Made by a program: the position numbers and the translations under genes. The notes under the pieces were generated by a model, which was not told the origin of the DNA, did no database searches, and saw only the letters and a program-made list of their open reading frames with translations. A stretch of 64,000 bases of DNA from a virus (lineage: Duplodnaviria; Caudoviricetes), in the IMG/VR virus record IMGVR_UViG_3300010049_000011, positions 32,001 to 96,000 of that record; one strand, given 5' to 3'. Shown piece by piece: positions 1,275 through 62,879 of the stretch; the stretch's first letter is position 1, and each line of letters starts with the position of its first letter.

Positions 1275-2279
1275 GTGAAATTACTCACTCAAAAAGTTGC
1301 TAATCTTCTTAACTCGAAAAAATCCGAAATAGACAAACTCCAGGCCCCGAGCGACAAGCTTATAAAAGCGATGGAGTTGGTTCAGGACGCTGGTCTAGGT
1401 GTTGGTGTGATAGAGGGTGGAACAGTCCGTTTTAAGGGATCTGAAGGAGTAGATTTCATAATCCAACCAGGTAACGTACTAAGAGGTATCTACGAAGTTA
1501 TTCTTGTGGATAAAAAGCCTGAGGAAGCTGTGGTTGAGTCTGCTGCAATAAACAACTCTACATCTGAAGAAGCTATTAAGTACATGAGCGAGATCTTGAT
1601 GCGTTTAGTATGCTTATATTCTTTACTTAAACAGAAGCACTGGAACTCCAAGATCCAAGGAGAACATCTAGGATACGATGCCGCCGCTGATGAGATCTAT
1701 GAAACGATCGATGAGTTCGCGGAAGAATATTTTATGGCTCGTAATATCCCGACTCCTAATACAGTTGAGTTTGGCAACATACTAGCTTCTGGAGAACCCG
1801 AAGACCGCACTAAAGAGCTCTACAAGTTAATCAACACCGCCGCGACTAAAGAGGGTCTCTTAGACCCGTCAATGCAGTCTCTAGTTACAGGGGTTGGTGA
1901 AGAAGTTTCTCACGCAATGGGTTTCATACGACTAGCAGAGAACGGTGTTACTCCTGAAGCTGTTAGCGAGATGACTGCATCCGCAGCTATAACTCCAGCT
2001 ATGACTGCTGTGGGTGGTCAGAGAATGGAGATCGACGTTAAAGCAGATAAGAAAAAGAAAGTCGAAGAATCTGCCTCTGATAGGTCTAACGTCAAAGAGA
2101 TGATCTCTGAAGCAATAGATTGGATCGAGGACGCAAACGAGAATCTAGACAAGATTAAAGAGGTATCTAAATCAGAACCTGATCTAGTCAAGATCTACCG
2201 CGCTTCAAACCTACCCTCCATACTCAAGTCTTGTGCTCGTATGGCTAAGGACTACAGGAAGTCTGTCGAAGGGCTTTAG
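1275..2279 (+). CDS. Putative internal head protein with a central Dps/ferritin-like domain
   Basis: KHWN...EH..YD...I...IDEFAE ferritin-like pattern flanked by VVESA, VSEM and VEESA sites. Confidence 0.65.
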   Translation: MKLLTQKVANLLNSKKSEIDKLQAPSDKLIKAMELVQDAGLGVGVIEGGTVRFKGSEGVDFIIQPGNVLRGIYEVILVDKKPEEAVVESAAINNSTSEEAIKYMSEILMRLVCLYSLLKQKHWNSKIQGEHLGYDAAADEIYETIDEFAEEYFMARNIPTPNTVEFGNILASGEPEDRTKELYKLINTAATKEGLLDPSMQSLVTGVGEEVSHAMGFIRLAENGVTPEAVSEMTASAAITPAMTAVGGQRMEIDVKADKKKKVEESASDRSNVKEMISEAIDWIEDANENLDKIKEVSKSEPDLVKIYRASNLPSILKSCARMAKDYRKSVEGL

Positions 2280-2282
2280 CAC

Positions 2283-2972
2283 ATGAGAGTTCCTCTTCGT
2301 TTAATAGAGATGTACAGAGAATACAAGTCTAAGTCTAAATTCTCAGATTACGACAACGATAGAGACGTAACTAAGAAATCTAAGACAGGGTATACTCGCA
2401 AGAGAATAGAGGACATGAAACCCCACGAGAAGAAAAGGGCATGCAAGGAATCCTCTCGAACCCCTGAAGAAATTCGTAAAGAAATAAACGATCTACACAA
2501 TCTCTATGAAACTCAACTCCGACTTCCTACAGGAGATAGAGACTTTACGCCAGAAGAATTCGAAGACAAGCTAAGCTCTCTTGTTAAAGAACTCGAGACT
2601 TCCGGAGATGACGATCTTAGTAAGAGGTCTAGATCCGAAATCTCTCGAGAATCTAAGATAAAGCATTTGGCCGATCTAGACTCGAGAATTTGGAGAGCAG
2701 AAGATCGAGGAGATTGGGATTCTGTTAGATACTTCGAAAACAAAAAAGCTTCGTACTTAAAGGCGTCTGAGAAGAAGGTTCAAGAGTCTCTATATATATC
2801 GACTACATCCCTAGTAGAGGCGCAGATAGATCAAGGAGATAACGTGGAGTGGTTCTCTCACCACGGAAAAAGCCACGGGATCGTTGTCGGGGAAGACAAC
2901 ACCAGACTAGTAGTAGATTGGGATAACGGTGGAACATCTACTCAACTACCGAGATACTTAAGGAAAATATAG
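2283..2972 (+). CDS. Putative internal head protein with C-terminal SH3/KOW-like module
   Basis: LIEM, CKESS, VQESL and LVEAQ sites; GDNVEW...GIVVG...VVDWDNG module. Confidence 0.6.
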   Translation: MRVPLRLIEMYREYKSKSKFSDYDNDRDVTKKSKTGYTRKRIEDMKPHEKKRACKESSRTPEEIRKEINDLHNLYETQLRLPTGDRDFTPEEFEDKLSSLVKELETSGDDDLSKRSRSEISRESKIKHLADLDSRIWRAEDRGDWDSVRYFENKKASYLKASEKKVQESLYISTTSLVEAQIDQGDNVEWFSHHGKSHGIVVGEDNTRLVVDWDNGGTSTQLPRYLRKI

Positions 2973-2973
2973 C

Positions 2974-4734
2974 ATGGGACTTACTCATAAAGCTCAACTA
3001 CACGAAGGTTGGTTAAGAGACACAGCAGTAGCTGCTGGCACAGCTGGAGCAATTATGGCTGGCGCGGGTGCTTACAACAAGGCGAAGAATGCCCGAGCAG
3101 AACATTTCAGGGAGCTACCTAGAGAGAGCAAGGAACTCCTTCGAGACGACTATCTATCCCTCCCCAAGAACCCTTCGTTGGGTCAGTTTGTAGAGCATCG
3201 TAGGAGAGATTTAGGATCTACTAAATGGTTGGGTTGGAAACCTGGATACCTACTACCCGGAGCTCCGGCTAAAAAGGATGCATGGATAGAACATATATCT
3301 TCCTACCAGCTATCGGGCTCAGATTACAATAGAGCTGTTCAGGATTATTACGAAAAGTTCGGTAACGGATCTATTGCAGAATCTGTAGCAAGGGCTATGC
3401 TTATGGAGGACGACTCTGACGATGCGGCAGGTCTTGTGGACGCTCCTGTCCCTCCTGTAGACGATGCTTCTTTAGACGTGGGGGCTATGAACGAGTTCAA
3501 TGTGGGTGATGATGTAAACATGAGTGCTCCACCGAATACTGGGCCCGGCGCTCCTGATGTCGGAGGAGATGAAGAACGGATTCCTGATACAGAGATCTAT
3601 ATGCCAGAAGAGAGCACCCCTCCTAAGAGAGTGGGAACAATTATTGGGTTTGAAGAAGAAGTTAAAGACTATTCTGGTATTATTAAATTGATGCGAGAAG
3701 GAAAGTCAATCGAAGAAGCTCTAAACGTATCACACGAAGAGGAAAAGGAAGATGCAAAAGCAAAGAAGATCCGGGTTAGGTGGTCTGATGGAACGGAAAC
3801 CCTCGAGAACCCCTCAGTCCTCGCGATTGCAGAATCAGTTCCTTTCGTCCAGCAGAATCCAACCGAGATCCCCCTCGAGTCTAAAGATGAAGTCCTCAAG
3901 ACCTTCCTTAGGATGCTCGGAAGGATTTCAGATAAGCTTCCGAACCAAAATCTAAGCGAGATAGAGAATAGGATTGTTCCTGGTATATTCTCTTGGTTAT
4001 TCTCCCCCAAGACTAAGTATGCTAAAGGAGCTGTAGCCGTTCCAGAAGTGATTGACTACACGTCGTATACTGCAGGTTGTTGGCTTAACTCGATAGACTT
4101 CATGACTAATTATGGAGAGGACTACACTAATTACAAACTTGCTCACGGAGTGTGCTTCTCTGAAGACCAACTTAAGGCCTTGATAGATAAGTTAGACAAA
4201 GATCTTGTTCCGGTAAATTTCCACTTCGTAAAACATGGATTTATAGAAGTAGACGGAGATAAGATTTTCGACGCTACGCTGAAGGATAACACGAACTATT
4301 ACTATTTCTATAGGACAATCCCTGAAGAGATATGGAACTCGTTAAGATATACAATAAAGAAAGAACAAGGAGAATGGAATGTCGAAGATTTCGCTAACTA
4401 CACGGCAGCGCAGATCCTCGATTCTCGCATCGAGAGAGTTATTCCTTTACAGGAGGCGTATGTTAGGTTTACTTCGCTTTTGGAGTCTACGAAGTCTGAG
4501 GACGAGATAGAGGCTGATATCAACCACATCTTAGGATGGTACTTTGCTAAGGATGAGGACACCCGTTCCGAAACCGCTACATTCAATATGTTGAGGAAAT
4601 ACTTACAGGATAATAACCTCTCTGAGGAAGAATATAAGTGGGCTTTCGATCTATTAGACAGGAACTGGAGCGATAAGTATAAGAACTACGACGCTCTCTG
4701 GGACTCCGTAATGGAGAAGAAACGTGCAAATTAG
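2974..4734 (+). CDS. Putative modular internal head protein
   Basis: 586 aa; LHEG, IAESV x2, LMED, LQEAY, LLEST and VMEK sites separate distinct segments. Confidence 0.6.
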   Translation: MGLTHKAQLHEGWLRDTAVAAGTAGAIMAGAGAYNKAKNARAEHFRELPRESKELLRDDYLSLPKNPSLGQFVEHRRRDLGSTKWLGWKPGYLLPGAPAKKDAWIEHISSYQLSGSDYNRAVQDYYEKFGNGSIAESVARAMLMEDDSDDAAGLVDAPVPPVDDASLDVGAMNEFNVGDDVNMSAPPNTGPGAPDVGGDEERIPDTEIYMPEESTPPKRVGTIIGFEEEVKDYSGIIKLMREGKSIEEALNVSHEEEKEDAKAKKIRVRWSDGTETLENPSVLAIAESVPFVQQNPTEIPLESKDEVLKTFLRMLGRISDKLPNQNLSEIENRIVPGIFSWLFSPKTKYAKGAVAVPEVIDYTSYTAGCWLNSIDFMTNYGEDYTNYKLAHGVCFSEDQLKALIDKLDKDLVPVNFHFVKHGFIEVDGDKIFDATLKDNTNYYYFYRTIPEEIWNSLRYTIKKEQGEWNVEDFANYTAAQILDSRIERVIPLQEAYVRFTSLLESTKSEDEIEADINHILGWYFAKDEDTRSETATFNMLRKYLQDNNLSEEEYKWAFDLLDRNWSDKYKNYDALWDSVMEKKRAN

Positions 4735-4912
4735 AGACCCTATGAGGATCGATGCGTTTTTAGAGAGTATCGGAACTTACTGGAAGAATAATCCCGATTT
4801 AAGATTTTACCAGATGTTGTTTAACTTAGGTATCTACGATCCTAAGAGAGATCAATACAACGATGAGGAGTCTCACTTTGTTATCGACGTTACAAGAACG
4901 GAACCTATATAA
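4724..4912 (+). CDS. Small conserved phage protein (DUF1040/YihD-like)
   Basis: RDPxRI...W...PDLRFxQ motif. Confidence 0.6.
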   Translation: MQIRDPMRIDAFLESIGTYWKNNPDLRFYQMLFNLGIYDPKRDQYNDEESHFVIDVTRTEPI

Positions 4913-5087
4913 GAAGACCTTAGAGATCGTTGAGAGTGAATCTTCCCGATTACTGGGACTGCAACGTTCAAATATCTCTACAGAGGGCCGCCTTAAGCGT
5001 GTAAATACTCACCAGATAGACGGTACTCAGCCGATACTTCCTCTTAGAGGTCAAGCTGCAGCTAAGAAATTCAACCAGGTAGCTTAG
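4863..5087 (+). CDS. Hypothetical protein
   Basis: 74-aa ORF filling the gap before the next promoter motif; contains LQER and IVES. Confidence 0.45.
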   Translation: MRSLTLLSTLQERNLYKKTLEIVESESSRLLGLQRSNISTEGRLKRVNTHQIDGTQPILPLRGQAAAKKFNQVA

Positions 5088-5105
5088 GTTATACCTAGGG
5101 AATTG

Positions 5106-5123
5106 TTCTAAATCCTAGTTAAT
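5106..5123 (+). promoter_or_regulatory. Putative late promoter
   Basis: TTCTAAATCCTAGTTAAT; the context CCTAGGGAATTG..TTCTAAATCCTAGTTAATTT is near-identical to 11862-11894. Confidence 0.7.
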
Positions 5124-5164
5124 TTCTCTCTATTATGTGTAAATATTCCTAAGGAATACGAATT

Positions 5165-7264
5165 ATGGCTCTCAAAGCTCTAAAAGAAGCTCTAACCGCT
5201 GTAGCAGCAAATCTCACGTACGACTGGACTCAAAAAACCTGGAAGGTCTCTAATAGAGATTCCGGAGAAGTCCTTGTTCAAGGTAATCGCTTTAAGGTTG
5301 CCTCTTACATGCATTCTATGGGCGCAAGAATAATGCAGCCCACTCGTCAGATGTCTGGGTTCTCGACGTCCTATCCGAATTTTAACGCTCTCCCCGATCT
5401 CTGGCATATGGGTGTCGAGGCTCTCTTGAACTTGTTCCTTGTTCGCGGTATGGAAAACGAGACGATTGAAATTATGCTCTACCCCCGCACGTACATAAAA
5501 GAAGGTGAGGAGCTTAAGTCTGCTGTATTGTTTGCGCAGCTCAAGGATAACTTACAGGATCAGAAAGTAGTCAATAAACTTACAGTCTACGTTCCAGTCA
5601 GTGCAGAAGAGAACATTGAATTCGCTATTCATGCTGACAAGATACACGAGCTCGAAGTAGGACGTGAAGATCTATCTGTGTTGAACGATCTAGTCGTTAT
5701 GTTGAACGATAAACAGCTCCCAGTTAATTCTCTAGATATACTCAACTCCTATGACGAATCCGGGGTATATACATTCGAGTTCGAAGCCCCGAATAAGATC
5801 GTCCGTAAAGAAGATATAAAGACGGTAAAGAAGTTCGAGATCCTGTTTAAGGACGCAGACCAAATCAACAAGTTTATCGAGGACTTCAAAGTCGCTGAGA
5901 TCTACGCTGATTCAATCGTTTATCACGATTCCTTAATTGCTAAGGAAGATGGGTCCTTTGTCCTGTGTATTAAGTCTACCGACAAGCTCAAACCGTATCT
6001 CGGTAATAAGGGACTCAAATTCGTGGTTGAAGAGGAAGCTCTATCCAATCTGCCGGATAACTTCGAAGACCTCTCTATAGACGATCTAGTCAACTTCTCG
6101 GTTAAAAATCTTGCTGCACGTAAGTTCCTCATAAAATCTCACTCAGTCTACGGCGCGTTCCCTCTGTGTGGTTGGGAATCTATGTCTGAGAAGACGGCTA
6201 AGTCTGAGTTCATGAGGATGAACCCTAAATACAAGGAAGAAAACATCGAGGTTGTAGTTGCTGGAGATATCTCTACAGCACCTTCCGGGGTTATTTATGA
6301 AGCTGTTGAAGACTTAAATCTACACTTCGAGAAGAGAATAGACGGTAATCTGGTTGTCGCTACACCTAAGATGGTTGGTGGCTCTCTTGTGGTCGTTGAT
6401 AACGATGGTAACTTCTTGGAGATCAATCCAGAGTTGTCTGTAGACTCTCTGATCGCTGAGATGCAGAATAACGGATGGGTCATGATCCGTGACGTAAGAG
6501 AATCTTCCCCAGAAGTTATTGCGTTAGTTGAAGCTGTCGACGACGATTTTATAGCGAACGTTAGAGACAACTTCCTAGCCTCCAACGGATCTGTCGGAGA
6601 GGTAGATTTTGCGATATCTGCTCTGAAACCCCTCGGATTCTCTAACGAGAAGGCTGAGGCTGAAGTAGGTAAGTGGATCGCAGGGACAAAGAAATGGCAG
6701 AACCTCGATAAGTCTAGAGACGAGAAACGCCAGAAGACTCTAGATACTGTCGCTAAGGCCCGAGATGTCCGCGCTGCTCAGTTGGCTGCTAAGACACAAG
6801 TTAAGGAATCATCTTACGAGATCGGAGACGCTTACTACGACGGTAACTTAGACCTCTATGGAGACATAACAGACTCTGTTAAATGTGACGAGGAAGGGTT
6901 CTTTATTCGTGTGCGTTTCGAGGACGGGAAAGAGAGGGTTGTTAGGTTGGAAGAATCTATAGATCTAAACTATTCCAAGAGCTCGGTCGACGAATTAGGA
7001 GATGACTTAGAGTTCTGGCGTAAGAGAGAGGAATCTTCAGACCGAGAGTATCGTGAACAAGCAGCTAAGAGAATCCCCTTAATTCTTAAAGAACTTAAGA
7101 AGAGAAGTGGGGTTACCGAATCCTCCCCGTTCAAGCCCGGAGACACGATAGAGACCTCGGATGGTGAAGTCGAAGTTTCAGGAGTCGCGGATAAGGACGG
7201 CAAGACTACCTTAATAACTAAAGATTCGAGCGGCGAGAAATCAACCCTCGAAATTAAAGAATAA
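5165..7264 (+). CDS. Large modular putative internal head protein
   Basis: AAGGA SD; LKEA, IYEA, VRESS, LVEA, VKESS, LEESI and VTESS sites bound short C-terminal modules. Confidence 0.65.
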   Translation: MALKALKEALTAVAANLTYDWTQKTWKVSNRDSGEVLVQGNRFKVASYMHSMGARIMQPTRQMSGFSTSYPNFNALPDLWHMGVEALLNLFLVRGMENETIEIMLYPRTYIKEGEELKSAVLFAQLKDNLQDQKVVNKLTVYVPVSAEENIEFAIHADKIHELEVGREDLSVLNDLVVMLNDKQLPVNSLDILNSYDESGVYTFEFEAPNKIVRKEDIKTVKKFEILFKDADQINKFIEDFKVAEIYADSIVYHDSLIAKEDGSFVLCIKSTDKLKPYLGNKGLKFVVEEEALSNLPDNFEDLSIDDLVNFSVKNLAARKFLIKSHSVYGAFPLCGWESMSEKTAKSEFMRMNPKYKEENIEVVVAGDISTAPSGVIYEAVEDLNLHFEKRIDGNLVVATPKMVGGSLVVVDNDGNFLEINPELSVDSLIAEMQNNGWVMIRDVRESSPEVIALVEAVDDDFIANVRDNFLASNGSVGEVDFAISALKPLGFSNEKAEAEVGKWIAGTKKWQNLDKSRDEKRQKTLDTVAKARDVRAAQLAAKTQVKESSYEIGDAYYDGNLDLYGDITDSVKCDEEGFFIRVRFEDGKERVVRLEESIDLNYSKSSVDELGDDLEFWRKREESSDREYREQAAKRIPLILKELKKRSGVTESSPFKPGDTIETSDGEVEVSGVADKDGKTTLITKDSSGEKSTLEIKE

Positions 7265-7284
7265 GTTTAACTAAAAGGAATACG

Positions 7285-8307
7285 ATGACAACCAACAACA
7301 CCGTAAATAACGCATTTACTAAAGAAGAGAATAAAATGGTCAAGAACAACGAGTCGAAGACCGATAAAATAGAGCAGTCAGTTAATAACGCTCAGAAGGT
7401 TCGTCAATCTGATCCTAAAGGTGAGAACGCCAAGCTTGTTAAGACTCCTGTAAGAGAGTCTGATTCTTCTCTTATTCGCACCGCTCGTAGGCTTCGTGAC
7501 GAGAATCCTGGTATGACTGTCGAAAAGTCTACAGAAAAGGCTAAGAAAATTCCTCAGAACATGAGAGAGTCTCGTATGGACGTAGTCAGCCATAACGTGG
7601 GAGACCGGGTCAAGTGGTGGAATCCTAACGAACCTATGACGGGTTCCGTAACAGGTCTCGCGAAGGATAGGAACGACCCCCGTCTCGTCTCTTATAAAGT
7701 AAAGTGGGACAACGGGAAACATGAAGGACAGTTCGCTCCAAACATGTTGATTGCAGAATCCGTTAAGACTCCTATCCAGAAACTAGTCGAGTCTTACATG
7801 CTTGCAGAATGCTACGAACTTCACATAACCTATAGGGATGGGTCCAAGGGTGTTGTAGATGTTGAAGGCACGATGGACGAGATCTTGTATCAGGCAGCTA
7901 AGATTAAGAGTGATGAAGACGCGCACGTTGACATCGTTAAGGTAGACATTAAAGAGTCAGTTAGGAATGTTAATACCTCGACGGTTGGAAGGGAACCTGC
8001 GAACATCGCTAAGGCCCCAGATAATGTACGGGATCCTCGCGAACTGAATAACGTTAAGAATGCCCCAGTAAAGGGAGCTGCTGAAGGTACGTATATTAAA
8101 GAATCTACCTATAAGACAGACAAGAATAACGATCTAGACTTCCCCGCTATGACTGCTGAAGAATTGGAGGATGTTATAGAAAGTCTCCAGGATCAGATGC
8201 ATGGTCCGAGCCATGCATCTCGTATAGCTGCTCAAGAAGACTACGAAAGGGCTTTAGAGGAATATACGAAACGCCAAAACAATCATCTAACAAGTGAAGA
8301 GTACTAA
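7285..8307 (+). CDS. Modular putative internal head protein
   Basis: AAGGA SD; VRESD, MRESR, IAESV, LVESY, LAEC, IKESV and IKEST sites; SH3-like VGDRVKW...VKWDNG module. Confidence 0.65.
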   Translation: MTTNNTVNNAFTKEENKMVKNNESKTDKIEQSVNNAQKVRQSDPKGENAKLVKTPVRESDSSLIRTARRLRDENPGMTVEKSTEKAKKIPQNMRESRMDVVSHNVGDRVKWWNPNEPMTGSVTGLAKDRNDPRLVSYKVKWDNGKHEGQFAPNMLIAESVKTPIQKLVESYMLAECYELHITYRDGSKGVVDVEGTMDEILYQAAKIKSDEDAHVDIVKVDIKESVRNVNTSTVGREPANIAKAPDNVRDPRELNNVKNAPVKGAAEGTYIKESTYKTDKNNDLDFPAMTAEELEDVIESLQDQMHGPSHASRIAAQEDYERALEEYTKRQNNHLTSEEY

Positions 8308-8778
8308 GTGGCAACCTTTAAGGAACTTCTCGCTAACGTAGGACACGTCCTTCCGACAATAAGAAGGAACGCAGATTACGTACCCGATAAGATCTATGAC
8401 TTAAAGGTTATGCCCTACGTGGGAACTAAATCAATCTTATTCTCTGGGTTCATCCATTCGGCCGAAAACAACAAGAGATATTCTTGTCAGATGGCCTTTT
8501 ATGGAATAGATGATCCTGAGAATTCCTTTCCTAGCGCTAGTGAGAACGTCTGCAGATGTAGGTGTTCGTGTATGTTTTTTAGATTCGTCTTTGGGTGGGC
8601 TAATAAGATTGCAGGGGCGTTACAGGGCGCTGCGTTCCCTCCTTACGTGAGGAAGACCCCACTCCCTCCTGCTAAAGGAGCCAGACCGCAATGGAATCCC
8701 GCAGACCTTCCGGGTCTCTGTAAACATCTCATAGTGTTTGGTAACGAACTTATGATGTCGGGAAGAATTAAACCTTAG
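8308..8778 (+). CDS. SWIM-type zinc-finger protein
   Basis: CRCSCxFF...LCKH motif. Confidence 0.65.
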   Translation: MATFKELLANVGHVLPTIRRNADYVPDKIYDLKVMPYVGTKSILFSGFIHSAENNKRYSCQMAFYGIDDPENSFPSASENVCRCRCSCMFFRFVFGWANKIAGALQGAAFPPYVRKTPLPPAKGARPQWNPADLPGLCKHLIVFGNELMMSGRIKP

Positions 8779-8792
8779 GAGTACCTACTACT

Positions 8793-9152
8793 ATGAAAGT
8801 CAGAGTAATATCGCAAGACGCAAACGGCAACAACATAACTAACGAGACTCTTGAAGTAAGAAGCTGGAGGAAACTCAAAGATCTCCTCCAGGAAGAAGAA
8901 GCTGCTTTCGCACAGGCTGAAGAAAAGTTCACGGGAGAAGGTAATACTCCTTTCGAATTTTATGGACCTGTAACAGGAGCTAAGTGGGAACTTCAAGGAT
9001 CTATAAAAGTAGTTGACGAATCCACCGGAGCAGAGTATTATTGGACGGGAGATGATTTCGATCCTATTGGAGATGCTCAGAATATCAACATCACGGAATC
9101 TCTTTCCAACTCTCTTTACGATAAGACTCTAAGATTGGTGGAATCTCTATAG
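8793..9152 (+). CDS. Hypothetical, putative head-associated protein
   Basis: AGGAG SD; ends ITESL...LVESL. Confidence 0.55.
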   Translation: MKVRVISQDANGNNITNETLEVRSWRKLKDLLQEEEAAFAQAEEKFTGEGNTPFEFYGPVTGAKWELQGSIKVVDESTGAEYYWTGDDFDPIGDAQNINITESLSNSLYDKTLRLVESL

Positions 9153-9164
9153 ATAGGATGTAAT

Positions 9165-9800
9165 ATGCATAAAGATTCAGTACGTCAACTAGTCGAACAT
9201 TACCTCCTAAAGGAAGAGCAGGAGTATAGAGGGTGGTATCCTTCCTTCACGGTGGTTGATAACGAGAAAACCGGAGACAGCTTAGACACTAGCGGTAAAG
9301 AGTTCTGGATACTTTGGGTAGCCAACACAGACCAAGTACGCCTCAGGATTAAAGAAGGTAAGATAAGCGATATAATGGGTACGTCTGAATATACAACTAC
9401 CCTCTCAGATCTGGACGTGAACTTTACGAACCTTGGAATAAAAGAGGATCTATCGACCTTGGCGGAGAAACATCTAGCAGAAGGTGGGTGTCTTTTAGTG
9501 TGTCAGGATTACATTACCACAACAGACCGATTCGGTCAGTCTACTAACTTCATGCCTGGAGACGAAGTACTAATACAGCAATCCTACCACGACCCCGAAG
9601 ATTTCGGAATAGCTATCTGGAACAAGTATGGAAAAGAGTCTCTGAACGATGCATTCGGGTTCGACGAGAAATGGTGGCAGGAAGAGCAAGGGAAGACTCC
9701 AGAGAATTACGAGTATTCTGGCTGGGAGCCTGGAGAAGGAGCTTGGATATTTAAGAGAAACGAACTAAATAAACTGAAGAAATATTTTGAGGTGAAATAA
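9165..9800 (+). CDS. Hypothetical, putative head-associated protein
   Basis: AGGA SD; N-terminal LVEHYLLKE leader; internal IKEDLSTLAEKHLAEG. Confidence 0.55.
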   Translation: MHKDSVRQLVEHYLLKEEQEYRGWYPSFTVVDNEKTGDSLDTSGKEFWILWVANTDQVRLRIKEGKISDIMGTSEYTTTLSDLDVNFTNLGIKEDLSTLAEKHLAEGGCLLVCQDYITTTDRFGQSTNFMPGDEVLIQQSYHDPEDFGIAIWNKYGKESLNDAFGFDEKWWQEEQGKTPENYEYSGWEPGEGAWIFKRNELNKLKKYFEVK

Positions 9801-9801
9801 C

Positions 9802-10554
9802 ATGACGGCCTACACGAAGAATTACCCAGGTTGGGGACTTACAGCAAGACATAAGAAGCCCGAATGGCGAATGGTGGGTAGTGATAGAGGCATGGATGTT
9901 TGGGAGGATGCCGAAGGAAAGCAGCAAAGGAGACCCCGTCTTAATATGCAAACAGGCCTATATGATAAATCTACAGAACCTCAATACGGGAATATACCTG
10001 AGGGTTACGAAAACCCGATGTTCGCTCGTGCTAAAGCCAAAGAGGCTGAATGGGGTTTAGGTTCAGACCTTAAACCTGGAGAAAAGAGCAAGAAGAACGC
10101 CGAGAAAGATGCACAGGCCCACCGATCTGTTAAGGACGGACAAGCAGAACTCTGGGCTTACGCTTGTGGACGAGACCTTAAGTACCAGGACTACGATTTA
10201 TTCCTATCTGAGTTCCTGCCAGAGTGGCAGAGGTATAAAGGGAACAACGCTGTCTCAGAATCTCTTTTCAACAAGGCTTGCACTTTAGTCGAAGCATATC
10301 TCCTTACCGAAGACGAAGCTATAATACAGAATATGGCTTCTGCTGTAGCTGGTTCCGAGGTATCTCCCAACACTGAGAGATTCCTAGACTCTGTCGAAGT
10401 GGCTACTCTCGGGGACATGATCGGTTCTGTCTCTAAGATTATAGAAGATTACCCTGAGATTATTGCGGTAGACATAGAGATTGGAGCATCTCTCAATAAC
10501 GTCATAAATCGCCTCTCTCAATTACAATTCTTTAAGACTAAGGCTCCTAAATAA
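9802..10554 (+). CDS. Hypothetical, putative head-associated protein
   Basis: GAGG SD; internal VSESLFNKACTLVEAYLLTED linker. Confidence 0.55.
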   Translation: MTAYTKNYPGWGLTARHKKPEWRMVGSDRGMDVWEDAEGKQQRRPRLNMQTGLYDKSTEPQYGNIPEGYENPMFARAKAKEAEWGLGSDLKPGEKSKKNAEKDAQAHRSVKDGQAELWAYACGRDLKYQDYDLFLSEFLPEWQRYKGNNAVSESLFNKACTLVEAYLLTEDEAIIQNMASAVAGSEVSPNTERFLDSVEVATLGDMIGSVSKIIEDYPEIIAVDIEIGASLNNVINRLSQLQFFKTKAPK

Positions 10555-10745
10555 TGCGTGAAGGTCAGAAACTCAGAATACACGGTAGAGACGCAGAGTT
10601 CCTTAGGCGAATTACTGATGCTGTAGTGTCTGTATACTACCCTGATGACGATTCTAAAGTCAACGTAAAGATCGTAGATTGTATCTATGAATCTCTAATC
10701 GAGAGTTATGATCGTACACTATTACCAAGTAAAGAAGCTAAATAG
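10554..10745 (+). CDS. Small SH3-like protein
   Basis: TAATG coupling to the upstream gene; IYESLIESY near the C-terminus. Confidence 0.5.
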   Translation: MREGQKLRIHGRDAEFLRRITDAVVSVYYPDDDSKVNVKIVDCIYESLIESYDRTLLPSKEAK

Positions 10746-10971
10746 TCAGAATTACGTTCTGGTTAAGCTTAGTTCGTCTTTAGAGATCGATAAGGTCTTT
10801 AATGTTAAGTTTGTGGATAAGAACGTGGAGACATGTTCTTGCGGAAATTGTAGGAACCCGAGGAAACACTCACATATAAGAGTAGTTAAGTCTTGGGTAT
10901 CTAATAAGATGCTCGAAAAGAGTATCGCAATTCACAACCCTAAAACCAACGAACTTACTTGGAAGAGATAG
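10708..10971 (+). CDS. Small SWIM-like zinc-binding protein
   Basis: CSCxxC...HxHI motif. Confidence 0.5.
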   Translation: MIVHYYQVKKLNSQNYVLVKLSSSLEIDKVFNVKFVDKNVETCSCGNCRNPRKHSHIRVVKSWVSNKMLEKSIAIHNPKTNELTWKR

Positions 10972-11142
10972 ATGCCTAAGTCTGAAGATAAAGATTTCCT
11001 CACTAAATCGGATTTTAATAAGTTAGCTCAAGCTCTCTTTAAGAAGGCTGGAATAGACCCTAAATCGTTCAGTAAGAAAAAATCCGTAAAGAATCCATAT
11101 AAGTATAAGAAAGTCTACTCTAAAGACGGGACTAAGAATTAA
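10972..11142 (+). CDS. Small basic protein (56 aa, not in the ORF track)
   Basis: ATG right after the upstream TAG; MPKSEDKDFL...DGTKN; fills the gap to 11144. Confidence 0.55.
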   Translation: MPKSEDKDFLTKSDFNKLAQALFKKAGIDPKSFSKKKSVKNPYKYKKVYSKDGTKN

Positions 11143-11143
11143 C

Positions 11144-11866
11144 ATGACGACTAATTACGCGAACACCTGGACAGAAGTAGACACCGAGATGGAGACGATC
11201 TTCCTCCATATCGCAAGAGGAGCCTCTCCTAACGCCTCAGAAATAGATATGTTCACAAAGGATAGAATTCAGTTTGTGAATAGTGTTGAAGATGTTGCCG
11301 AGTTGTTTGATATCTACCAACGCAAGACTAAGCAAACTCAGATCACGTATCCTCTCTTGTCATACACTCCTAACGGGACGACGGAATCCATCCAGCACGG
11401 AACCGGAGTCAGGTCAACTGTGTTCGGTATCAGGACCAACCTCCCTAACGGGGAAACTAAGGTATCTAAGGCTAAGGGAGTAGAATCTGACTACAACTAT
11501 GCTATTTGGACTGACAGCTTCGAGAAGGCCAGGTACTACCAGAACAATCTAACTGTAAACTGTCTAGATAGGTACCATTTCCATAAATACCACTCGAACG
11601 TGTTGAATAGAGAGTCTTACATATTTACGATGTTAGACGCGCCTGTCTTAAATAAAATACCTAAATTCGACGATAAGAAGAAGCAATCCGGTTACATATA
11701 CGTAGTTGCCGGAATCTGTGATGTCTGGGCAATATTGTCGGAACCTTCCTTCCCGATGTCTACAATAGAGCAGATCTCTCTAACCGTTCGTGGAATGGAG
11801 GGACAGAACCAAGCGTTCAAGTCTACGATCGTAGTAGACGGGGACGACGCGGAACGTCCTTCCTAG
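11144..11866 (+). CDS. Putative tail terminator / sheath stabiliser (T4 gp15-like)
   Basis: 240 aa; I.YPLLSY...YNYAIW pattern; near the sheath gene. Confidence 0.45.
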   Translation: MTTNYANTWTEVDTEMETIFLHIARGASPNASEIDMFTKDRIQFVNSVEDVAELFDIYQRKTKQTQITYPLLSYTPNGTTESIQHGTGVRSTVFGIRTNLPNGETKVSKAKGVESDYNYAIWTDSFEKARYYQNNLTVNCLDRYHFHKYHSNVLNRESYIFTMLDAPVLNKIPKFDDKKKQSGYIYVVAGICDVWAILSEPSFPMSTIEQISLTVRGMEGQNQAFKSTIVVDGDDAERPS

Positions 11867-11874
11867 GGAATTGG

Positions 11875-11928
11875 TTCTAAATCCTAGTTAATTTGTCCTC
11901 GGACTCCTCTAGTTCTTTTATATAAATA
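11875..11928 (+). promoter_or_regulatory. Putative late promoter motif plus an exact T4-type TATAAATA box
   Basis: TTCTAAATCCTAGTTAAT at 11875-11892; TATAAATA at 11921-11928, upstream of ATG 11950. Confidence 0.65.
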
Positions 11929-11949
11929 CAATAACCTAAGGAAAATCTT

Positions 11950-13179
11950 ATGTTGAAATCTCTACAAGAGAAATGGAATAGCGTACCGGCCTCTAAGCTG
12001 TTTGCCCTATCCGAGATGAATTTCGAAACGGACGCTGGAGTCTTAACTGTAAACAAGGGAGATGAGGTAGATCTCCGTAACGTGAACGCAAACCTCGTTA
12101 TACATACTAAAGAGAAATCTGTAGTAATCGCCGACGAGAATATTGCTAAAGCGGTAGTCAATAACGTAGTGTCTCGCGAAGACATGTCTGAGATGGTCGA
12201 AAAGAAGATCTCTATAATGGAGTCTATCAACGAATTCGGAGCGGAAGCAACAGTTCGTAAACTCGCAGAATCCGATACTGCAGGCAATACAAGCTACGGA
12301 AACATCTCTAACGAATCCCAAGAAACGTTCAACGCGGTGCGCAACACTGTCAAAGCTTCCGAGACCCTCAAGTCTTCCGAAGTTATGAACGAAAAATCTA
12401 CCCAAGTCAAGACGGATCTCGAAGGAGACGAGCTTGTGACTGGTGAAGTTGTTCAGACCCGAGACATACCTGCGGAAGTTCGCCTAAACAACGTTATGAA
12501 CAACCTCGGTAAGAACCGCCCTAATTCTCCCCTAGTGCGGGCCGTAGACATCGAAGAGAATTCCACGAAATCTCTCACAGTCGAATCTGTCCGCCTAATC
12601 GCAGAGGAAGAGAACGAGATGTTCTTCAACGTAGAGGAGTTCAAAGGCGCAGTAAGTAACGCTGGAAACACTCTCACACTGAAAGACAACAACATTTACT
12701 CTAACACCCCCAACGGCGTTAATGGTCGCTTCGATAACGAAAGTGGAGAAGGAGTTATCTACAACACTCTCAATGCAGCGAACCCTGAAGAGTTGGATGT
12801 AATTATCCTTGCTCCTACAATGTTCATGACTGTAGCAGAGCTTCCTGAAGTTGAGAACACTAACGATTCTGTCAACGTTGTAGCGGAAGAACCTGCTGTA
12901 GTAGTTACTGAGGCCGCAACAGATTCCGGAATCGAAGTTGAATCGGGCCGTATGAAAGAACTTCTCGGTATCCCTGAAGAAGATCAGATTGCTGACCACT
13001 ACACCTCTGGTGTTAAGCTTGCTGACGACCTCATGAAGAAGGTTGGACGCGCCGACGCCATGAAGATGATCAACTTTGCCGCTAACTTCACAGGTGAAGA
13101 CCTCTTCCGTATAGCTCGCGATCACCTTGCTAACGTCCGTGACGAACAAGAAGCAGCTAAAGAAGAGCGTAAAGACTAA
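11950..13179 (+). CDS. Acidic putative prohead core / internal head protein
   Basis: AAGGA SD; many [ILVM]-x-E sites (LQEK, LSEM, IMES, LAES, MNEK, IAEE, VTEA). Confidence 0.5.
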   Translation: MLKSLQEKWNSVPASKLFALSEMNFETDAGVLTVNKGDEVDLRNVNANLVIHTKEKSVVIADENIAKAVVNNVVSREDMSEMVEKKISIMESINEFGAEATVRKLAESDTAGNTSYGNISNESQETFNAVRNTVKASETLKSSEVMNEKSTQVKTDLEGDELVTGEVVQTRDIPAEVRLNNVMNNLGKNRPNSPLVRAVDIEENSTKSLTVESVRLIAEEENEMFFNVEEFKGAVSNAGNTLTLKDNNIYSNTPNGVNGRFDNESGEGVIYNTLNAANPEELDVIILAPTMFMTVAELPEVENTNDSVNVVAEEPAVVVTEAATDSGIEVESGRMKELLGIPEEDQIADHYTSGVKLADDLMKKVGRADAMKMINFAANFTGEDLFRIARDHLANVRDEQEAAKEERKD

Positions 13180-13523: not shown

Positions 13524-15893
13524 ATGGCAAATTTTCCCGGAGTATATCCTGAAATAAGAGAATTACCTGCCGTCATCTCGGGAATATCTTCGAGCGTTGT
13601 CGCTGTCGTGGGATCCGCAGAGAGAGGCCCTGTCTTCGAGAGGAACTTCTTAGGTAATTTCAGAAACTACAATTCCACTTTCGGAACCCCCAACCTTAAA
13701 TACGGGTACATGGGGCACTGCGCTGCAGCATTCTTCGAGACAGCTCGCGAAGTATACATAACTCGAGTAGTTCATGACGACGCAACCTACGCAGGAGTTA
13801 AGATCCCGATGCAATCCGCTGGAGGAGGTTATTCTTCTGGTCAGGGGTACTCCTTAGACGAAGTAGATACTGATCTATTTACGTCTGTTACGAATATAGG
13901 GGTGTCTGACGGAACTACAACCAACTTCAATGGAATTCTCAGGACCCCCTTCTCTCCTAACACCGTAGTCGTGATCGCAGGATCTGTTGTCGCTCAAGAT
14001 GATGGCTTAGGAAACCTGGTAGGAGACGGTGTTACTTCTGGCAGCGTAGATTACGTTACAGGGCTTATAGAGATAGTTTACACGACCTCCCCCTCCAAGG
14101 GTACGTCGGTGTCTGCTCAAGCTACGGATAACGCATCTATCCTAGCTATACTTGCGGATAACCCTAACCAACTCGATGTTCGTGTTCAGCTACAAGATGC
14201 AACTACCCTTCCTGCAAACACCTTAGCTGCCTACACTGAAGGAGATCCGACTTCTGGATTGGTTACTATAACCACAGTTAACCCGCACGGCATGGATGTG
14301 GGGGATAGAGTTGTTGTGTCTAACTCGACTGACTCCGCTTATAACGGATCTTGGACGGTGGTGTCTAACGGAGATGTGACTTCTTCTTATACAAACGTAG
14401 TTACGGACATGGTTACGGCCCTCACAAACATCGGGGCTACGTGGGGTGCCGCTAACATTCCACTATATCTAACTTACGTGTATTCGGTCGACACCGGATA
14501 CATCTGCACAATCGAGAATCCTACAGGTATTACTTACCAGCTTGAGGGAACTATTCTGAACGCTCTAGGTTTCAAAACTGGTGTGTACTCGGAAGCTGAT
14601 CTCGTTGGAGTATCTGTAACTGGAGATGATGTTGTCTCTGGTCTCACAATAAAGGTTACTCAGAAGGCTCTAAACAGCACGATGTTTACCTATAACGTGA
14701 TTCCTGATACAATCACCCAGGTTCTCCCTTCGGCCACTCGTTGGGTACAATATCCTCCTCTCACGGACCAGAGATTCAATATACAGGTCTACGAAGTAAT
14801 AAACGGATCTAACACGCTCGTAGAGACTTGGGCTAACTGTACTCTGTTCAACAACAGAATAAACGGATCTAATACATTCGTCGAGAGTAGAGTAAACGGA
14901 CGCTCAACCTACATTAGAGTGAGTGTAAATCAGGCTGCTCTAGATCTAACTAACGATTACGCTAACCCTGTCTTTCTATCTTACGCATTCCCTCTACAGG
15001 GAGGATCTAACGGTTCTGCTGTGACCTCCTCAGACATTGCTAACGGTTGGGAACTCTATAGGAAGCGTAACGATGTAGCGATAAACTACATGTGTAATGC
15101 GGGGTATGTCTCGGAAGACGATGTCCTTGTCCAGAACACTATGAAGTCTATAGCTGAGTCTCGTAGGGATTGTTGCGCTATACTAGATATACCGTTTAAC
15201 ATGACCTCTAACTCCCCCCGTCAAGATGCTATTGACTGGAGAAGGAATACTCAAGCCTTTAACTCTCGTAAGACTCGTCTCTACACTCCGTGGATCCAGG
15301 TCTTCGACAGCTTCTCTAATACTTCTGGAGTCTGGCTACCTCCTTCAGGATTCGTAACCCAAGCGTACTGTCGTAAGCCTTCTCCTTGGGATGCCGCTGC
15401 AGGCTTCGACTTCGGTACTCTATCTAGCTCTGTACTCCCTCCTACAGGTCTTTCGGAGAACTATGACGAGGAATCTGACGGAGAACAGCTCTACGCTAAC
15501 GGACTTAACTGTATATTACAATTCCCCTCGATAGGTTACGTCGTGTGGGGACAGAAGACTCAAGTAGTTGGTGATAATATCTTCGATCGAGTAAATCGTG
15601 AAGAGACAGTCACATACATCGAAACGGTCCTAAGAGATGCTGCTAAGTTCAACATCTTCAGAGCCAACACTCCGATAGTGCGTGCTCAGATTCAGGAACA
15701 ATTCTCTACGTTCTTAGGGACTGTTGGCGGTCTGGATAGGTTCGCTGTGGACATGTCTGCGAATACTCCTGAAGTGGTTGCGTCTAATCAGATGATAATA
15801 GACCTGTACCTCTGGCTTACTTCTGTGGCCGAAGTAATTCGCCTACGTTCTAACCCATTAGATGGAACAGTAGACATCACGATTGGTGGGTAA
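13524..15893 (+). CDS. Contractile tail sheath protein (T4 gp18-like) with inserted domains
   Basis: PGVYxEIRE...AVVG.AERGP; AESRRDCCAILD; WLPPSG; VVWGQKT. Confidence 0.93.
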   Translation: MANFPGVYPEIRELPAVISGISSSVVAVVGSAERGPVFERNFLGNFRNYNSTFGTPNLKYGYMGHCAAAFFETAREVYITRVVHDDATYAGVKIPMQSAGGGYSSGQGYSLDEVDTDLFTSVTNIGVSDGTTTNFNGILRTPFSPNTVVVIAGSVVAQDDGLGNLVGDGVTSGSVDYVTGLIEIVYTTSPSKGTSVSAQATDNASILAILADNPNQLDVRVQLQDATTLPANTLAAYTEGDPTSGLVTITTVNPHGMDVGDRVVVSNSTDSAYNGSWTVVSNGDVTSSYTNVVTDMVTALTNIGATWGAANIPLYLTYVYSVDTGYICTIENPTGITYQLEGTILNALGFKTGVYSEADLVGVSVTGDDVVSGLTIKVTQKALNSTMFTYNVIPDTITQVLPSATRWVQYPPLTDQRFNIQVYEVINGSNTLVETWANCTLFNNRINGSNTFVESRVNGRSTYIRVSVNQAALDLTNDYANPVFLSYAFPLQGGSNGSAVTSSDIANGWELYRKRNDVAINYMCNAGYVSEDDVLVQNTMKSIAESRRDCCAILDIPFNMTSNSPRQDAIDWRRNTQAFNSRKTRLYTPWIQVFDSFSNTSGVWLPPSGFVTQAYCRKPSPWDAAAGFDFGTLSSSVLPPTGLSENYDEESDGEQLYANGLNCILQFPSIGYVVWGQKTQVVGDNIFDRVNREETVTYIETVLRDAAKFNIFRANTPIVRAQIQEQFSTFLGTVGGLDRFAVDMSANTPEVVASNQMIIDLYLWLTSVAEVIRLRSNPLDGTVDITIGG

Positions 15894-61151: not shown

Positions 61152-62879
61152 ATGTCGAAGATAATAGACCAAATCAGGGGCCTCTCTAAGAGATCTACAA
61201 TAATTGAGGGCCTCTCTTACAATGCTAAATCTAAAACGGCAACCGTAGGGGTAGACAATAAGTACCTCAACAACTTAAAAGAGTTTGCTCGTAGACAAGG
61301 TCTAGACATTAAGACCGATAGGGAAGGTAAATATATAACAATCCCTGGAGGATACTCTAGAGATGAGCAGAACTCCTTTATATCTGATTGGCTTACCTCG
61401 TTCAATCTTCCTGGGACTGAAGTAGTTAAATCTTATTACGACGCTTACGACCTTATGGATTCCAACGTCAGTTTGATAACCTTAGCTCTCGATACTTACG
61501 CAGATGAAGCTCTGTCTGTTGGGTTCCTCGACAACGACCCTCTCAAGATAGAGATATCTGATAAAGAGATTCAGGAGAAAGTAGAGAAGGTACTAGATAT
61601 TAATAAGTACTATAAGAAACAGCGTGGTATAGTTAGATCTCTCGCCAAATACGGGGACATAGGAATCGAGTTACAACCGGAAGGGGTAGTGTCTGAAGAG
61701 CATAGTATTAAGTTAACAACTAGGAGAGCGACTTTAATCACCCCTATCGTGATGGATGACTCAGAAGTAATCTCTTCTTTCAAAATTAAGATGGATCTAA
61801 AGCGTCTGTCGCGCCTCAGGAACTTTACTAAGACACGCTCTGAGAGAGTGGTTCAATCCTACGACTTTGCCTACTATTCCCTTTACGACGAAGAACTGTT
61901 CCCGTACGGTCGGTCTATGCTGTATAACGCCAAACCTATAGCTGACCAGCTTACAACTCTAGAGACTCTTCTGGCTCTTGGCCGCGCTAATAATGTAAAT
62001 CGCTTAATTATTAAGGTTCCCGCTCCTGAAGGAGACGCTGTTGAAGCCTTCGAGAAAGTCTCGCAAGTTAAAGGGATGTATAAAAACACTCTGTTCGACG
62101 AACCTAACCTAGGTCAGAAGGCTGGTAGGAAGATTCCGGGTGTGAACGAGATACTTTGGATGCCTAATACCGAAGGGTTCGATATATCGAACCTAAAAGT
62201 CGATGTTAATATGGCAGACACTGCTGACGTTGACCATTTTGAAAATAAATTAAAAGACGCCACGAGGCTGCCCAAGGGCTTCTTCTCGGGTGATGAAGTA
62301 ACTTCCCGAGGGGGTGCATTAGCCGAACAAGACTTGAAGTTCTCTCGGTTACTCCTCACGCTCCAGGACGCGTATTGTGAGGGAGTAGCTGATCTTGTTC
62401 TCCGAATAATCCTTAAACTGGGATGTGAGATTACAGACGATCTAGAGATTAAAGTCTCCCTAGAGAAACCGATACAGCTCTCTGCAGACATGATCGCTCA
62501 ATTCTCAGATAAGATTAATCTCGCTAAAGAATTCCTCAGCCTGAACTCTGAAATAACGGCAGTTCCAGGGCAGGAATCCCCCAAACCTATGGTGCAATCT
62601 AACGCTTATCAGCTCCTACAGCTTCTCGGTATACCCGAACAGATAGCTAAGTTGGTTACATCTGTGGGTGCCCTCGAAGTTATGCCTAAGGCCCAGGATA
62701 ATTTCCTGCTAGGCCAGAAGGTTGCAATATCTGAAGGTAGTAAGAACGAAAGCAAGAATAAAGACGTAAAGGATTCTGGGTACTCAATAAGAGTCCCGAT
62801 TACATCTTATACTTTAAAGTGTAAGGACACTGCTCCTAAGACTCTGATAGAATCGTGCCGAAATCCTGTAAAGGTCTAG
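61152..62879 (+). CDS. Portal protein (T4 gp20-like)
   Basis: YD.MD...I..ALDTYADEA; R.L.KYGD; PYGRS.L; QL..LE; DV..F..KL..A..LP..F; LA.QD.KFSR...LQ. Confidence 0.9.
   Translation: MSKIIDQIRGLSKRSTIIEGLSYNAKSKTATVGVDNKYLNNLKEFARRQGLDIKTDREGKYITIPGGYSRDEQNSFISDWLTSFNLPGTEVVKSYYDAYDLMDSNVSLITLALDTYADEALSVGFLDNDPLKIEISDKEIQEKVEKVLDINKYYKKQRGIVRSLAKYGDIGIELQPEGVVSEEHSIKLTTRRATLITPIVMDDSEVISSFKIKMDLKRLSRLRNFTKTRSERVVQSYDFAYYSLYDEELFPYGRSMLYNAKPIADQLTTLETLLALGRANNVNRLIIKVPAPEGDAVEAFEKVSQVKGMYKNTLFDEPNLGQKAGRKIPGVNEILWMPNTEGFDISNLKVDVNMADTADVDHFENKLKDATRLPKGFFSGDEVTSRGGALAEQDLKFSRLLLTLQDAYCEGVADLVLRIILKLGCEITDDLEIKVSLEKPIQLSADMIAQFSDKINLAKEFLSLNSEITAVPGQESPKPMVQSNAYQLLQLLGIPEQIAKLVTSVGALEVMPKAQDNFLLGQKVAISEGSKNESKNKDVKDSGYSIRVPITSYTLKCKDTAPKTLIESCRNPVKV

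Follow-up and report, generated by a model that had tools for sequence, protein, structure and literature searches.

Positions 1275-13179 of the phage DNA considered here, directly upstream of a tail sheath gene, raise the question of what becomes of the products of 16 tightly packed open reading frames (ORFs), all on the plus strand, in which short hydrophobic-x-Glu motifs of the prohead-protease type recur. The window, that is, the whole stretch of DNA that was analysed, is 64,000 nucleotides long and comprises bases 32001-96000 of one contig of 145,122 base pairs (bp), IMG/VR record IMGVR_UViG_3300010049_000011, from an uncultured phage known only from metagenome. The answer that we favour, with somewhat more confidence than doubt, is that the block encodes precursors of head-internal proteins in the style of phage T4, joined into proteins of several modules that the prohead protease cuts. 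The sites are likely to be cut by this protease, and the cargo proteins probably enter the capsid and are separated into their pieces inside it. Genes are named below by their first base in the window, unless a genome coordinate is given, and a slash within a peptide marks a predicted cut.

Motif enrichment in the block

A sequence-only reading of this locus had described about ten adjacent genes as mosaics of unrelated segments separated by [ILVM]-x-E-[SA] sites, and the comparison that it called for was with the tail and metabolic proteins of the same window. Expected counts were taken from composition-preserving shuffles of each protein (n=300). The 16 ORFs hold 35 sites where 12.1 ± 3.6 are expected (z-score 6.5), a count that none of the 300 shuffles reaches. 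The signal is carried by Ser after Glu (P1′): [ILVM]xES alone occurs 26 times against 6.3 expected (z 8.5), while [ILVM]xEA, with nine occurrences against 6.2, is not enriched in the block. P3 of the sites is L, V or I, and S is commoner than A at P1′. The control motifs, namely the reversed motif, the motif with Asp for Glu and E[GTNQ], show no enrichment over the shuffles in the block, and neither does the phiKZ-type motif [SAG]xE (77 against 72 expected, z 0.7). When about 7,800 tripeptide patterns were scanned without bias, the highest-ranking ones for the block were I.ES and V.ES.

The density of sites is 0.89 per 100 amino acids (aa), which is 7.5 times that in the tail and baseplate proteins of the window (n=16; 0.12 per 100 aa; p 9e-9) and 3.5 times that in its metabolic, endonuclease and chaperonin proteins (n=11; 0.26 per 100 aa; p 2e-5). 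No site occurs in five of the 16 ORFs (4724, 8308, 10708, 10972 and 11144), and the sites of gene 11950 are not in significant excess. Enrichment is individually clear in five genes only: 7285, 5165, 10554, 8793 and 2974. Cutting at every site would turn the ten site-bearing genes into 48 pieces, 16 of them with at most 17 residues (spacers), 23 with 24-100, eight with 101-220 and one with 371; the pieces of 24-371 residues number 32. The segments between the sites are mostly unrelated, as had been proposed, with the exception of one small beta domain that recurs at the C terminus of gene 2283 and in the middle of gene 7285 (residues 96-158; E-value 2.7e-4).

The recurrent linker

A longer linker, of which seven strings had been quoted, all found in the translations, joins many of these segments. 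In its full form it consists of three stacked sites, Phi-x-E/S-x(6-7)-L-V-E/[SA]-Y-[LM]-L-x-E/, where Phi is a hydrophobic residue. Its nine-residue core, [LIVM][VIL]E[SAH]Y[LM][LS].E, has four copies in the genome against 0.00 expected. Two of them lie inside proteins (genes 7285 and 9802) and two form the N-terminal tag of stand-alone genes (gene 9165 and the gene at genome 30066, just upstream of the window), which speaks for the idea that the linker is reusable. The double site has nine copies against 0.42 expected, those in capsid exon 1 and in the scaffold part of the protease among them. An N-terminal peptide that ends in the motif is clear in genes 9165, 5165, 2283, 2974 and 11950 and in the gene at genome 30066.

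In five of the six internal linkers the spacing is [SA]-x(6-7)-L[VL]E, that is, 7-8 residues from the post-cut residue to L-V-E. The native N termini of the capsid protein (MTVFKSLVE/S), the protease, gene 9165 and the gene at genome 30066 follow M-x(4-7)-L[VI]E, that is, 5-8 residues. Since the internal spacing matches that of the native N termini, the first cut would yield an N terminus like that of the separate genes.

Ends of genes also fall inside linkers: gene 8793 stops within one, and gene 9165 starts with the other half. These two genes are in the same frame and are set apart by one TAG and four codons (9150-9164), and the stop of gene 8793 overlaps a Shine-Dalgarno-like AGGA. One polyprotein may have been split in two recently, or the two genes may be coupled by design. 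Two further small site-bearing genes lie just upstream of the window, at genome 29698-30692, so that the putative cargo set reaches beyond 1275-13179. One begins MFGVDDALLSLVE/S and the other MIDVKKLVE/AYMLCE/A, with VIE/SYLSE/A in its interior; membrane-protein genes separate them from the main block. Elsewhere in the window, a 97-aa ORF at 54158-54451, outside the block, carries the double site GIVE/ADSATRDEDVIILE/A. The idea that the linker is an amphipathic helix was dropped because its hydrophobic moment, at about the 50th percentile, is ordinary among cargo 12-mers.

The protease and its likely substrates

The head of this phage is T4-type, with a Gp23 capsid protein, a Gp20 portal and a gp21-family protease. 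The portal matches Pfam Portal_T4 with 68.1 bits (cut-off 22.9) and the capsid protein matches Pfam Gp23 with 55.6 bits (cut-off 24.4). The protease, which as a single sequence has no match in Pfam, matches PHROG 207 (E 1.3e-9), and a profile of its domain built from this phage and three relatives (profile A2) matches PDB 5JBL, the T4 prohead core protease gp21, with an E-value of 1.5e-14. The alignment of the four protease domains shows no variation at the catalytic residues His83 and Ser146. The C-terminal half of the 511-aa protein is a scaffold-like coiled coil. Among cultured phages, Pseudomonas phage QdP_Psa3 and Xanthomonas phage phiXF1 come nearest, with a portal identity of about 30%.

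The sites that had been noticed at the N terminus of the protease (LIES, LVES) and at the ends of the portal (IIEG, ISEG, LIES) are present in the translations. In the protease, LIE/S and LVE/S at the N terminus are joined by VVE/S after the protease domain and by four more sites in the coiled coil, including the linker-like LGE/SVKKLSKLLE/A. Capsid exon 1 holds five sites in 108 aa, two of which align with sites of the QdP_Psa3 capsid protein (LLES with MVES, and LSEA/T with KLEA/T); one of the aligned sites is the last L-x-E-A/T before the mature part. The same pattern is found in relatives. The head block of QdP_Psa3 has 21 sites against 7.2 expected, and its 724-aa protease-scaffold carries the pattern; in one metagenome locus (L016) there are 12 sites in the protease-scaffold and three at the N terminus of the capsid protein. 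The motif, which also marks capsid exon 1 and both ends of the protease, fits the specificity to be expected of the gp21-type protease of this phage. T4 gp21 cleaves on the C-terminal side of the Glu of L/I-x-E motifs (PMC9026906, PMC5694885), and a preference for Ser after Glu has been reported for gp245 of phage SPN3US (PMC9026906, PMC10052503). The predicted sites of this phage agree with both the published T4 rule and the Ser preference of SPN3US.

Modules and their homologues

Two of the modules occur as free-standing genes in other phages, with ends at predicted cut sites. Residues 335-393 of gene 11950 correspond to the whole of the stand-alone 69-aa protein Rm378p121 of phage RM378 (54% identity, E 2e-18), and the match begins 14 aa after VTE/A. 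This module of about 60 residues (window 12952-13128; LGIP...KVGR..AMKMINFAAN) is 46-54% identical in RM378 and in the megaphages LR756508.1 and LR756504.1. In LR756508.1 it lies between a terminase-like ORF, which precedes it, and an intein-containing ORF, which follows it. For residues 363-501 of gene 2974 the counterpart is a 266-aa ORF of LR756508.1 that stands alone (pairwise E 1e-14) and whose C terminus coincides with the linker in gene 2974.

Residues 288-494 of gene 2974 (window 3835-4455) have a Cys/His/Asp-like signature, and the megaphage ORF shares both Gly-Cys-[WY]-x-Asn..Asp-Phe-Met and His-x-Phe..Val-x-Gly-x-Lys-Ile-Phe-Asp-x-Thr-Leu. The signature suggests a papain- or transglutaminase-like enzyme, and the module could be a peptidase; an enzyme-like signature is seen in this one module only. 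Leads towards a YunG-like or a transglutaminase-like family were rejected, as shuffled sequences reach the same scores. The Dps-like module of gene 1275 matches PHROG 858/3636 (E 2.5e-4) and, below the cut-off of that family, Pfam DUF5856 (E 2.6e-5); against the Dps chains of the PDB the E-values are 0.07-0.1, with matches that start at residue 88-95.

In a single-sequence AlphaFold2 (AF2) model of gene 7285, with a predicted local distance difference test score (pLDDT) of 52, folded units are found at residues 104-148, 175-224 and 291-339, and six of the eight cut positions lie in connectors with pLDDT below 50. A fold search with this model gives only generic helical hairpins, with Z up to 7.4. 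Comparison of ten separate modules with Pfam gives nothing above noise, and the same holds for searches of PHROGs, of the PDB with sequences and with profiles, and of the ESM Atlas. An SH3-like family of beads was also rejected: a hidden Markov model (HMM) from two seeds recovers no further copies, and for this reason the resemblances seen by eye around V-R-W-x-D-G (genes 2974 and 5165, and protein P0003, described below) are anecdotal.

Relatives of the phage and of the cargo proteins

Among 50,697 phage records, megablast finds no match to the block. No relative of the phage is found in IMG/VR with gene 7285, the portal or P0003, in a genome collection scanned with P0003, or in a look-alike index. 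P0003 itself, encoded on a contig of 99,976 bp, is the sole relative of gene 5165 in an exhaustive HMMER search (residues 6-124; E 2.5e-4 library-wide, 2e-13 pairwise). Genes 2974 and 9165 match only themselves among 5.8e9 protein clusters, and tblastn searches of phages with genes 1275, 2283, 5165, 7285, 9165 and 9802 and the gene at genome 30066 find nothing. Genes 11144 and 11950 show no similarity to CDS0103 and CDS0100, their positional counterparts in QdP_Psa3. The linker core, back-translated to a DNA pattern, has 38 matches in IMG/VR, almost all in short open frames; none of them has a nearby upstream Phi-x-E-S site, and no relatives were found in this way. Most of the other cargo proteins are ORFans, that is, they have no detectable relative. 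The internal proteins of T-even phages form a highly diverse set with the targeting sequence alone in common (PMC3012670), a description that the ORFan status of the cargo proteins fits.

Gene 8308, a SWIM-like zinc-finger gene, is the only gene of the block that is conserved in QdP_Psa3, where it also lies beside head genes, and relatives of it occur in 31 metagenome loci that come from a range of environments. The sequence has the form C-x-C...C-K-H, with an invariant PPYVRKT...PGLCKHL. It is a conserved head-module gene and not a bead protein. No bead proteins are found near it in the 31 loci, in which only the protease-scaffold and the capsid protein carry the motif.

A proposed maturation pathway and its alternatives

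The most economical reading of these data is a T4-style set of internal and core proteins in which neighbouring tagged genes have become fused. The precursors would enter the core of the assembling prohead alongside the protease-scaffold fusion. After closure of the Gp23-type shell, the gp21-type serine protease would cut after Glu in Phi-x-E, with Phi being L, V or I and the next residue mostly Ser. Spacer peptides of 6-11 residues would thereby be removed, and about 30 module-sized pieces of 24-371 aa would be freed. The linker would originally have been the N-terminal tag of a gene in its own right, [M]-x(5-8)-L-V-E/x-Y-L-L-x-E/, made internal by fusion with a neighbouring gene, and after the first cut at Phi-x-E/S the N terminus of the downstream piece would be of the kind found in the capsid protein, the protease and the stand-alone genes.

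Cutting, head location, targeting by the tag and the fate of the pieces are inferred in this pathway, and several observations weigh against it. The block lies about 50 kilobases (kb) from the portal and protease genes and adjoins tail genes. Four of the ten site-bearing genes (11950, 1275, 2283 and 9802) are not individually enriched, and an N-terminal Phi-x-E tag is not significantly more frequent in the block (6 of 16 ORFs) than among the others (42 of 181; p 0.16). Structural support from gene 7285 is weak (a single-sequence model with pLDDT 52, binomial p 0.10), and a second AF2 model, of gene 2974, is unusable (pLDDT 35). The phage is known from metagenome alone and has no close relative in the searches above; P0003, the one distant homologue, is not significantly enriched in sites (four against 2.1 expected, p 0.15), and QdP_Psa3, the nearest cultured relative, has no bead proteins in its syntenic block.

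The pieces, once cut, may simply be discarded. An explanation built on this accepts the sites as real and takes the proteins for disposable parts of the scaffold or core and for long propeptides, the small pieces of which leave the head, so that the host would receive little or nothing. In T4, gp21 does chop up the core proteins, and the short fragments then leave the capsid (PMC5694885); in SPN3US and phiKZ, propeptides bear redundant sites for their removal (PMC10052503, PMC9026906). Gene 7285, which would be cut about every 40 aa and whose first 95 residues are predicted to be helical, rich in Lys and Glu and without a fold, would suit such a role, as would the many predicted pieces that are acidic and shorter than 60 aa and the presence of a linker-like peptide in the scaffold part of the protease. 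However, a scaffold is already present as the C-terminal coiled coil of the protease, and some 3,200 aa of ORFan sequence that diverges rapidly is much for scaffolding. Several pieces, moreover, look autonomous, namely the beta units of gene 7285, the Cys/His/Asp module of gene 2974 with its stand-alone homologue and the Dps-like module. T4 IPI* has only 76 aa, yet it is retained and injected, so that small size alone is no sign of loss. Disposal of the products as a whole is, in our judgement, unlikely.

A less probable explanation, which we would doubt strongly, is that the motif is not a cleavage signal at all: the proteins would be tail, neck or intracellular proteins, and [ILV]-x-E-S a structural or binding motif or a matter of composition. 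The position of the block, which adjoins the tail sheath gene on its upstream side and is distant from the portal and protease genes, is what such proteins might lead one to expect, and four genes are, as listed above, not individually significant. The rest of the genome also has a mild excess of [ILVM]xEA (55 against 33 expected), and part of the signal would then be helix-type sequence. Composition, however, does not account for a count that no composition-preserving shuffle reaches or for flat reversed and Asp controls, and the tail proteins of the same window are 7.5-fold poorer in sites. The motif marks the N-terminal piece of the capsid protein and the ends of the protease, both here and in relatives, and the segments that flank it are mutually unrelated, so that shared ancestry does not explain its recurrence. 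That the linker is mainly a DNA-level recombination junction for module shuffling, with its likeness to a cleavage site secondary, would account for the gene and module boundaries that fall at it, but is very improbable, since the nucleotide identity of its eight copies, 26-51%, does not exceed what follows from their amino-acid identity, codons for identical residues mostly have different third bases (one pair alone shares 15 identical bases), and a search of IMG/VR with the degenerate DNA pattern yields no relatives; as a DNA repeat the linker was rejected, nucleotide conservation not going beyond the amino-acid requirement.

Fused head-internal precursors cut by the prohead protease thus remain the reading that we prefer. 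A bolder form of it, in which the pieces are a packaged and injected arsenal made as polyproteins and the internal capsid-targeting tag serves as address label and triple cut site at once, can be put forward only tentatively, and is more doubtful than the cutting itself. The earlier description of the pieces as a library of effectors exceeds the evidence, because many of the multiply cut segments in T4 and SPN3US are discarded propeptides or scaffold (PMC5694885, PMC10052503). A literature search, which was not exhaustive, found no account of a repeated prohead-protease linker at which cargo polyproteins are cut in trans. If such a plug-and-play arrangement exists, any small gene fused behind the linker would be loaded into the head and released there separately, and the cargo system would be kept up by gene fusion and fission at the linker. 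Capsid cargo of the T4 kind would then not be bound to one gene, one tag and one protein, as chains of modules could be cut inside the head, and this would explain how such phages carry and rapidly exchange many small host-directed proteins. It would also define a portable peptide of about 20 residues, or its 9-residue core, as a candidate tag for loading foreign proteins into capsids, and provide a sequence-only rule for spotting packaged proteins in uncultured phage genomes.

Genes of the block and their setting

The genes of the block and the head genes used for comparison are listed in Table 1.

Table 1. Candidate cargo genes and T4-type head genes (window coordinates unless marked genome; a slash marks a predicted cut)
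Feature	Position	Strand	Remarks
Candidate cargo precursor, 334 aa	1275..2279	+	Sites after residues 88, 265 and 279; weak Dps/ferritin-like module directly after VVE/S
Predicted precursor, 229 aa	2283..2972	+	Linker VQE/SLYISTTSLVE/A at DNA 2778-2819, then 50-aa beta module
Predicted precursor, 586 aa	2974..4734	+	Five sites; linker LQE/AYVRFTSLLE/S at DNA 4447-4485
Doubtful ORF, 74 aa	4863..5087	+	Linker-like NLYKKTLEIVE/S
Predicted precursor, 699 aa	5165..7264	+	8-aa N-terminal MALKALKE/A, 371-aa module, then five small modules; linker VRE/SSPEVIALVE/A at DNA 6494-6532
Predicted precursor, 340 aa	7285..8307	+	Highest site density (7 against 0.9 expected); full triple linker IAE/SVKTPIQKLVE/SYMLAE/C at DNA 7750-7809
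SWIM-like zinc-finger protein, 156 aa	8308..8778	+	No sites
119-aa protein	8793..9152	+	Ends inside linker ITE/SLSNSLYDKTLRLVE/SL-stop, DNA 9090-9149
211-aa protein	9165..9800	+	N-terminal tag MHKDSVRQLVE/HYLLKE/ (second linker half), DNA 9165-9215, then 194-aa module
Predicted precursor, 250 aa	9802..10554	+	Two modules joined by full linker VSE/SLFNKACTLVE/AYLLTE/D, DNA 10252-10311
63-aa protein	10554..10745	+	Compressed linker IYE/SLIE/S, DNA 10683-10703
Acidic protein, 409 aa, doubtful member	11950..13179	+	Three sites against 2.1 expected
Portal, T4-type	61152..62879	+	Pfam Portal_T4; IIE/G near N terminus, ISE/G and LIE/S near C terminus
gp21-type protease fused to scaffold-like coiled coil, 511 aa	63555..64000, continues past the window to 65090	+	
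Capsid exon 1	genome 14375-14701		108-aa ORF; aligns with residues 21-92 of the QdP_Psa3 capsid protein
Capsid exon 2	genome 18417-18608		
Capsid exon 3	genome 19135-20178		

The block is poor in sigma-70-like promoters, and a TATAAATA box is found at 11921, upstream of gene 11950. Between the two long genes 2974 and 5165 there is a gap of 430 bp (4735-5164) that holds only two short overlapping ORFs. The peptide LYKKTLEIVES of one of them, ORF 4863, resembles LYDKTLRLVES of gene 8793, with 19 of 39 bases identical. This ORF may be a decayed module or remnant, or a small gene.

The window also encodes a contractile tail (sheath, at 13524-15893, tube and baseplate), the large terminase and a GroEL-like chaperonin. 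The gene of the Gp23-type capsid protein lies upstream of the window, at genome 14375-20178, and is split into three pieces. The insert between exons 1 and 2 is 3.7 kb long and contains two homing-endonuclease-like ORFs; a search of this insert for an RNA family found none. Exons 2 and 3 are separated by a group I intron (Rfam RF00028, 68 bits, genome 18605-19102).

Comparison with known systems

The internal proteins IPI, IPII, IPIII and Alt of T4 combine a capsid targeting sequence with processing by gp21 (Mullaney and Black 1996, reviewed in PMC9026906, PMC3012670, PMC5694885). The present phage resembles T4 in its T4-type head and gp21-family protease, in the predicted cuts after Glu in hydrophobic-x-Glu, in short N-terminal peptides of 8-17 residues that end in the motif, and in cargo genes that are hypervariable and otherwise mutually unrelated. 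In T4, separate genes have one N-terminal tag each, whereas here several modules share one polypeptide and a tag-like triple-site linker is internal. After Glu, Ala predominates in T4 sites, whereas Ser does so here. No sequence similarity between T4 proteins and the block was found, and the head-protein families of Pfam and PHROG give no match to the block proteins; targeting and injection are putative here. Since internal proteins are not defined by homology, a functional likeness to IPI, IPII, IPIII or Alt may exist even so.

The block proteins are also like the T4 core proteins gp22, gp67 and gp68 in being hydrophilic and partly helical, with many internal protease sites. Those proteins are conserved assembly factors whose fragments are mostly lost, whereas the block consists of ORFans with folded-looking modules, and the scaffold domain of this phage is already fused to the protease.

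The ejection and inner-body proteins of SPN3US (gp53, gp54, gp47) and phiKZ (gp93-95) are cut by gp245 or gp175, and this cargo is packaged with the DNA and ejected (PMC10052503, PMC5694885, PMC9026906). Many head proteins of these phages are also cut at x-x-Glu motifs, with several redundant sites per protein, and SPN3US likewise prefers Ser at P1′. The motif in those phages, however, is A/S/G-x-E, for which the block shows no enrichment, and the reported SPN3US cuts, apart from the one that removes the C-terminal propeptide of the protease itself, take an N-terminal propeptide off one mature C-terminal protein, whereas a chain of modules would be freed here. Their cargo also belongs to paralogue families such as PF12699, to which Pfam finds no match among the block proteins. 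Precedents exist for both fates: the T4 internal proteins, Alt and the SPN3US ejection proteins are retained, and multiply cut propeptides and scaffold are discarded (PMC5694885, PMC10052503).

The closest published concept for packaged proteins of several modules is that of the polyvalent proteins of phages and conjugative elements, for which proteolytic release of domains has been proposed (Iyer et al. 2017, PMC5512222). Such proteins likewise combine several modules, have their genes among those of the virion, and are predicted to be packaged and injected. Polyvalent proteins have recognisable enzymatic domains, often MuF or portal anchors, and an embedded metallopeptidase. In the block proteins, by contrast, searches of Pfam and PHROG found no MuF, portal or metallopeptidase domain, and their processing would fall to the prohead protease, acting in trans at the repeated linker. 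Where at least two recognisable domains characterise a polyvalent protein, the block offers the sub-threshold Dps-like module and the Cys/His/Asp-type module without a family match.

The core polyproteins pp220 and pp62 of African swine fever virus are cut at Gly-Gly-X. They are similar in that a virion protease cuts polyproteins into several internal components; lineage, protease and motif are all unrelated to those of this phage, and the likeness is one of analogy only. Compared with these systems, the cargo system of this phage appears, on balance, to be the internal-protein scheme of T4 in an altered form, in which the single tagged protein has given way to chains of modules with an internal, repeated linker.

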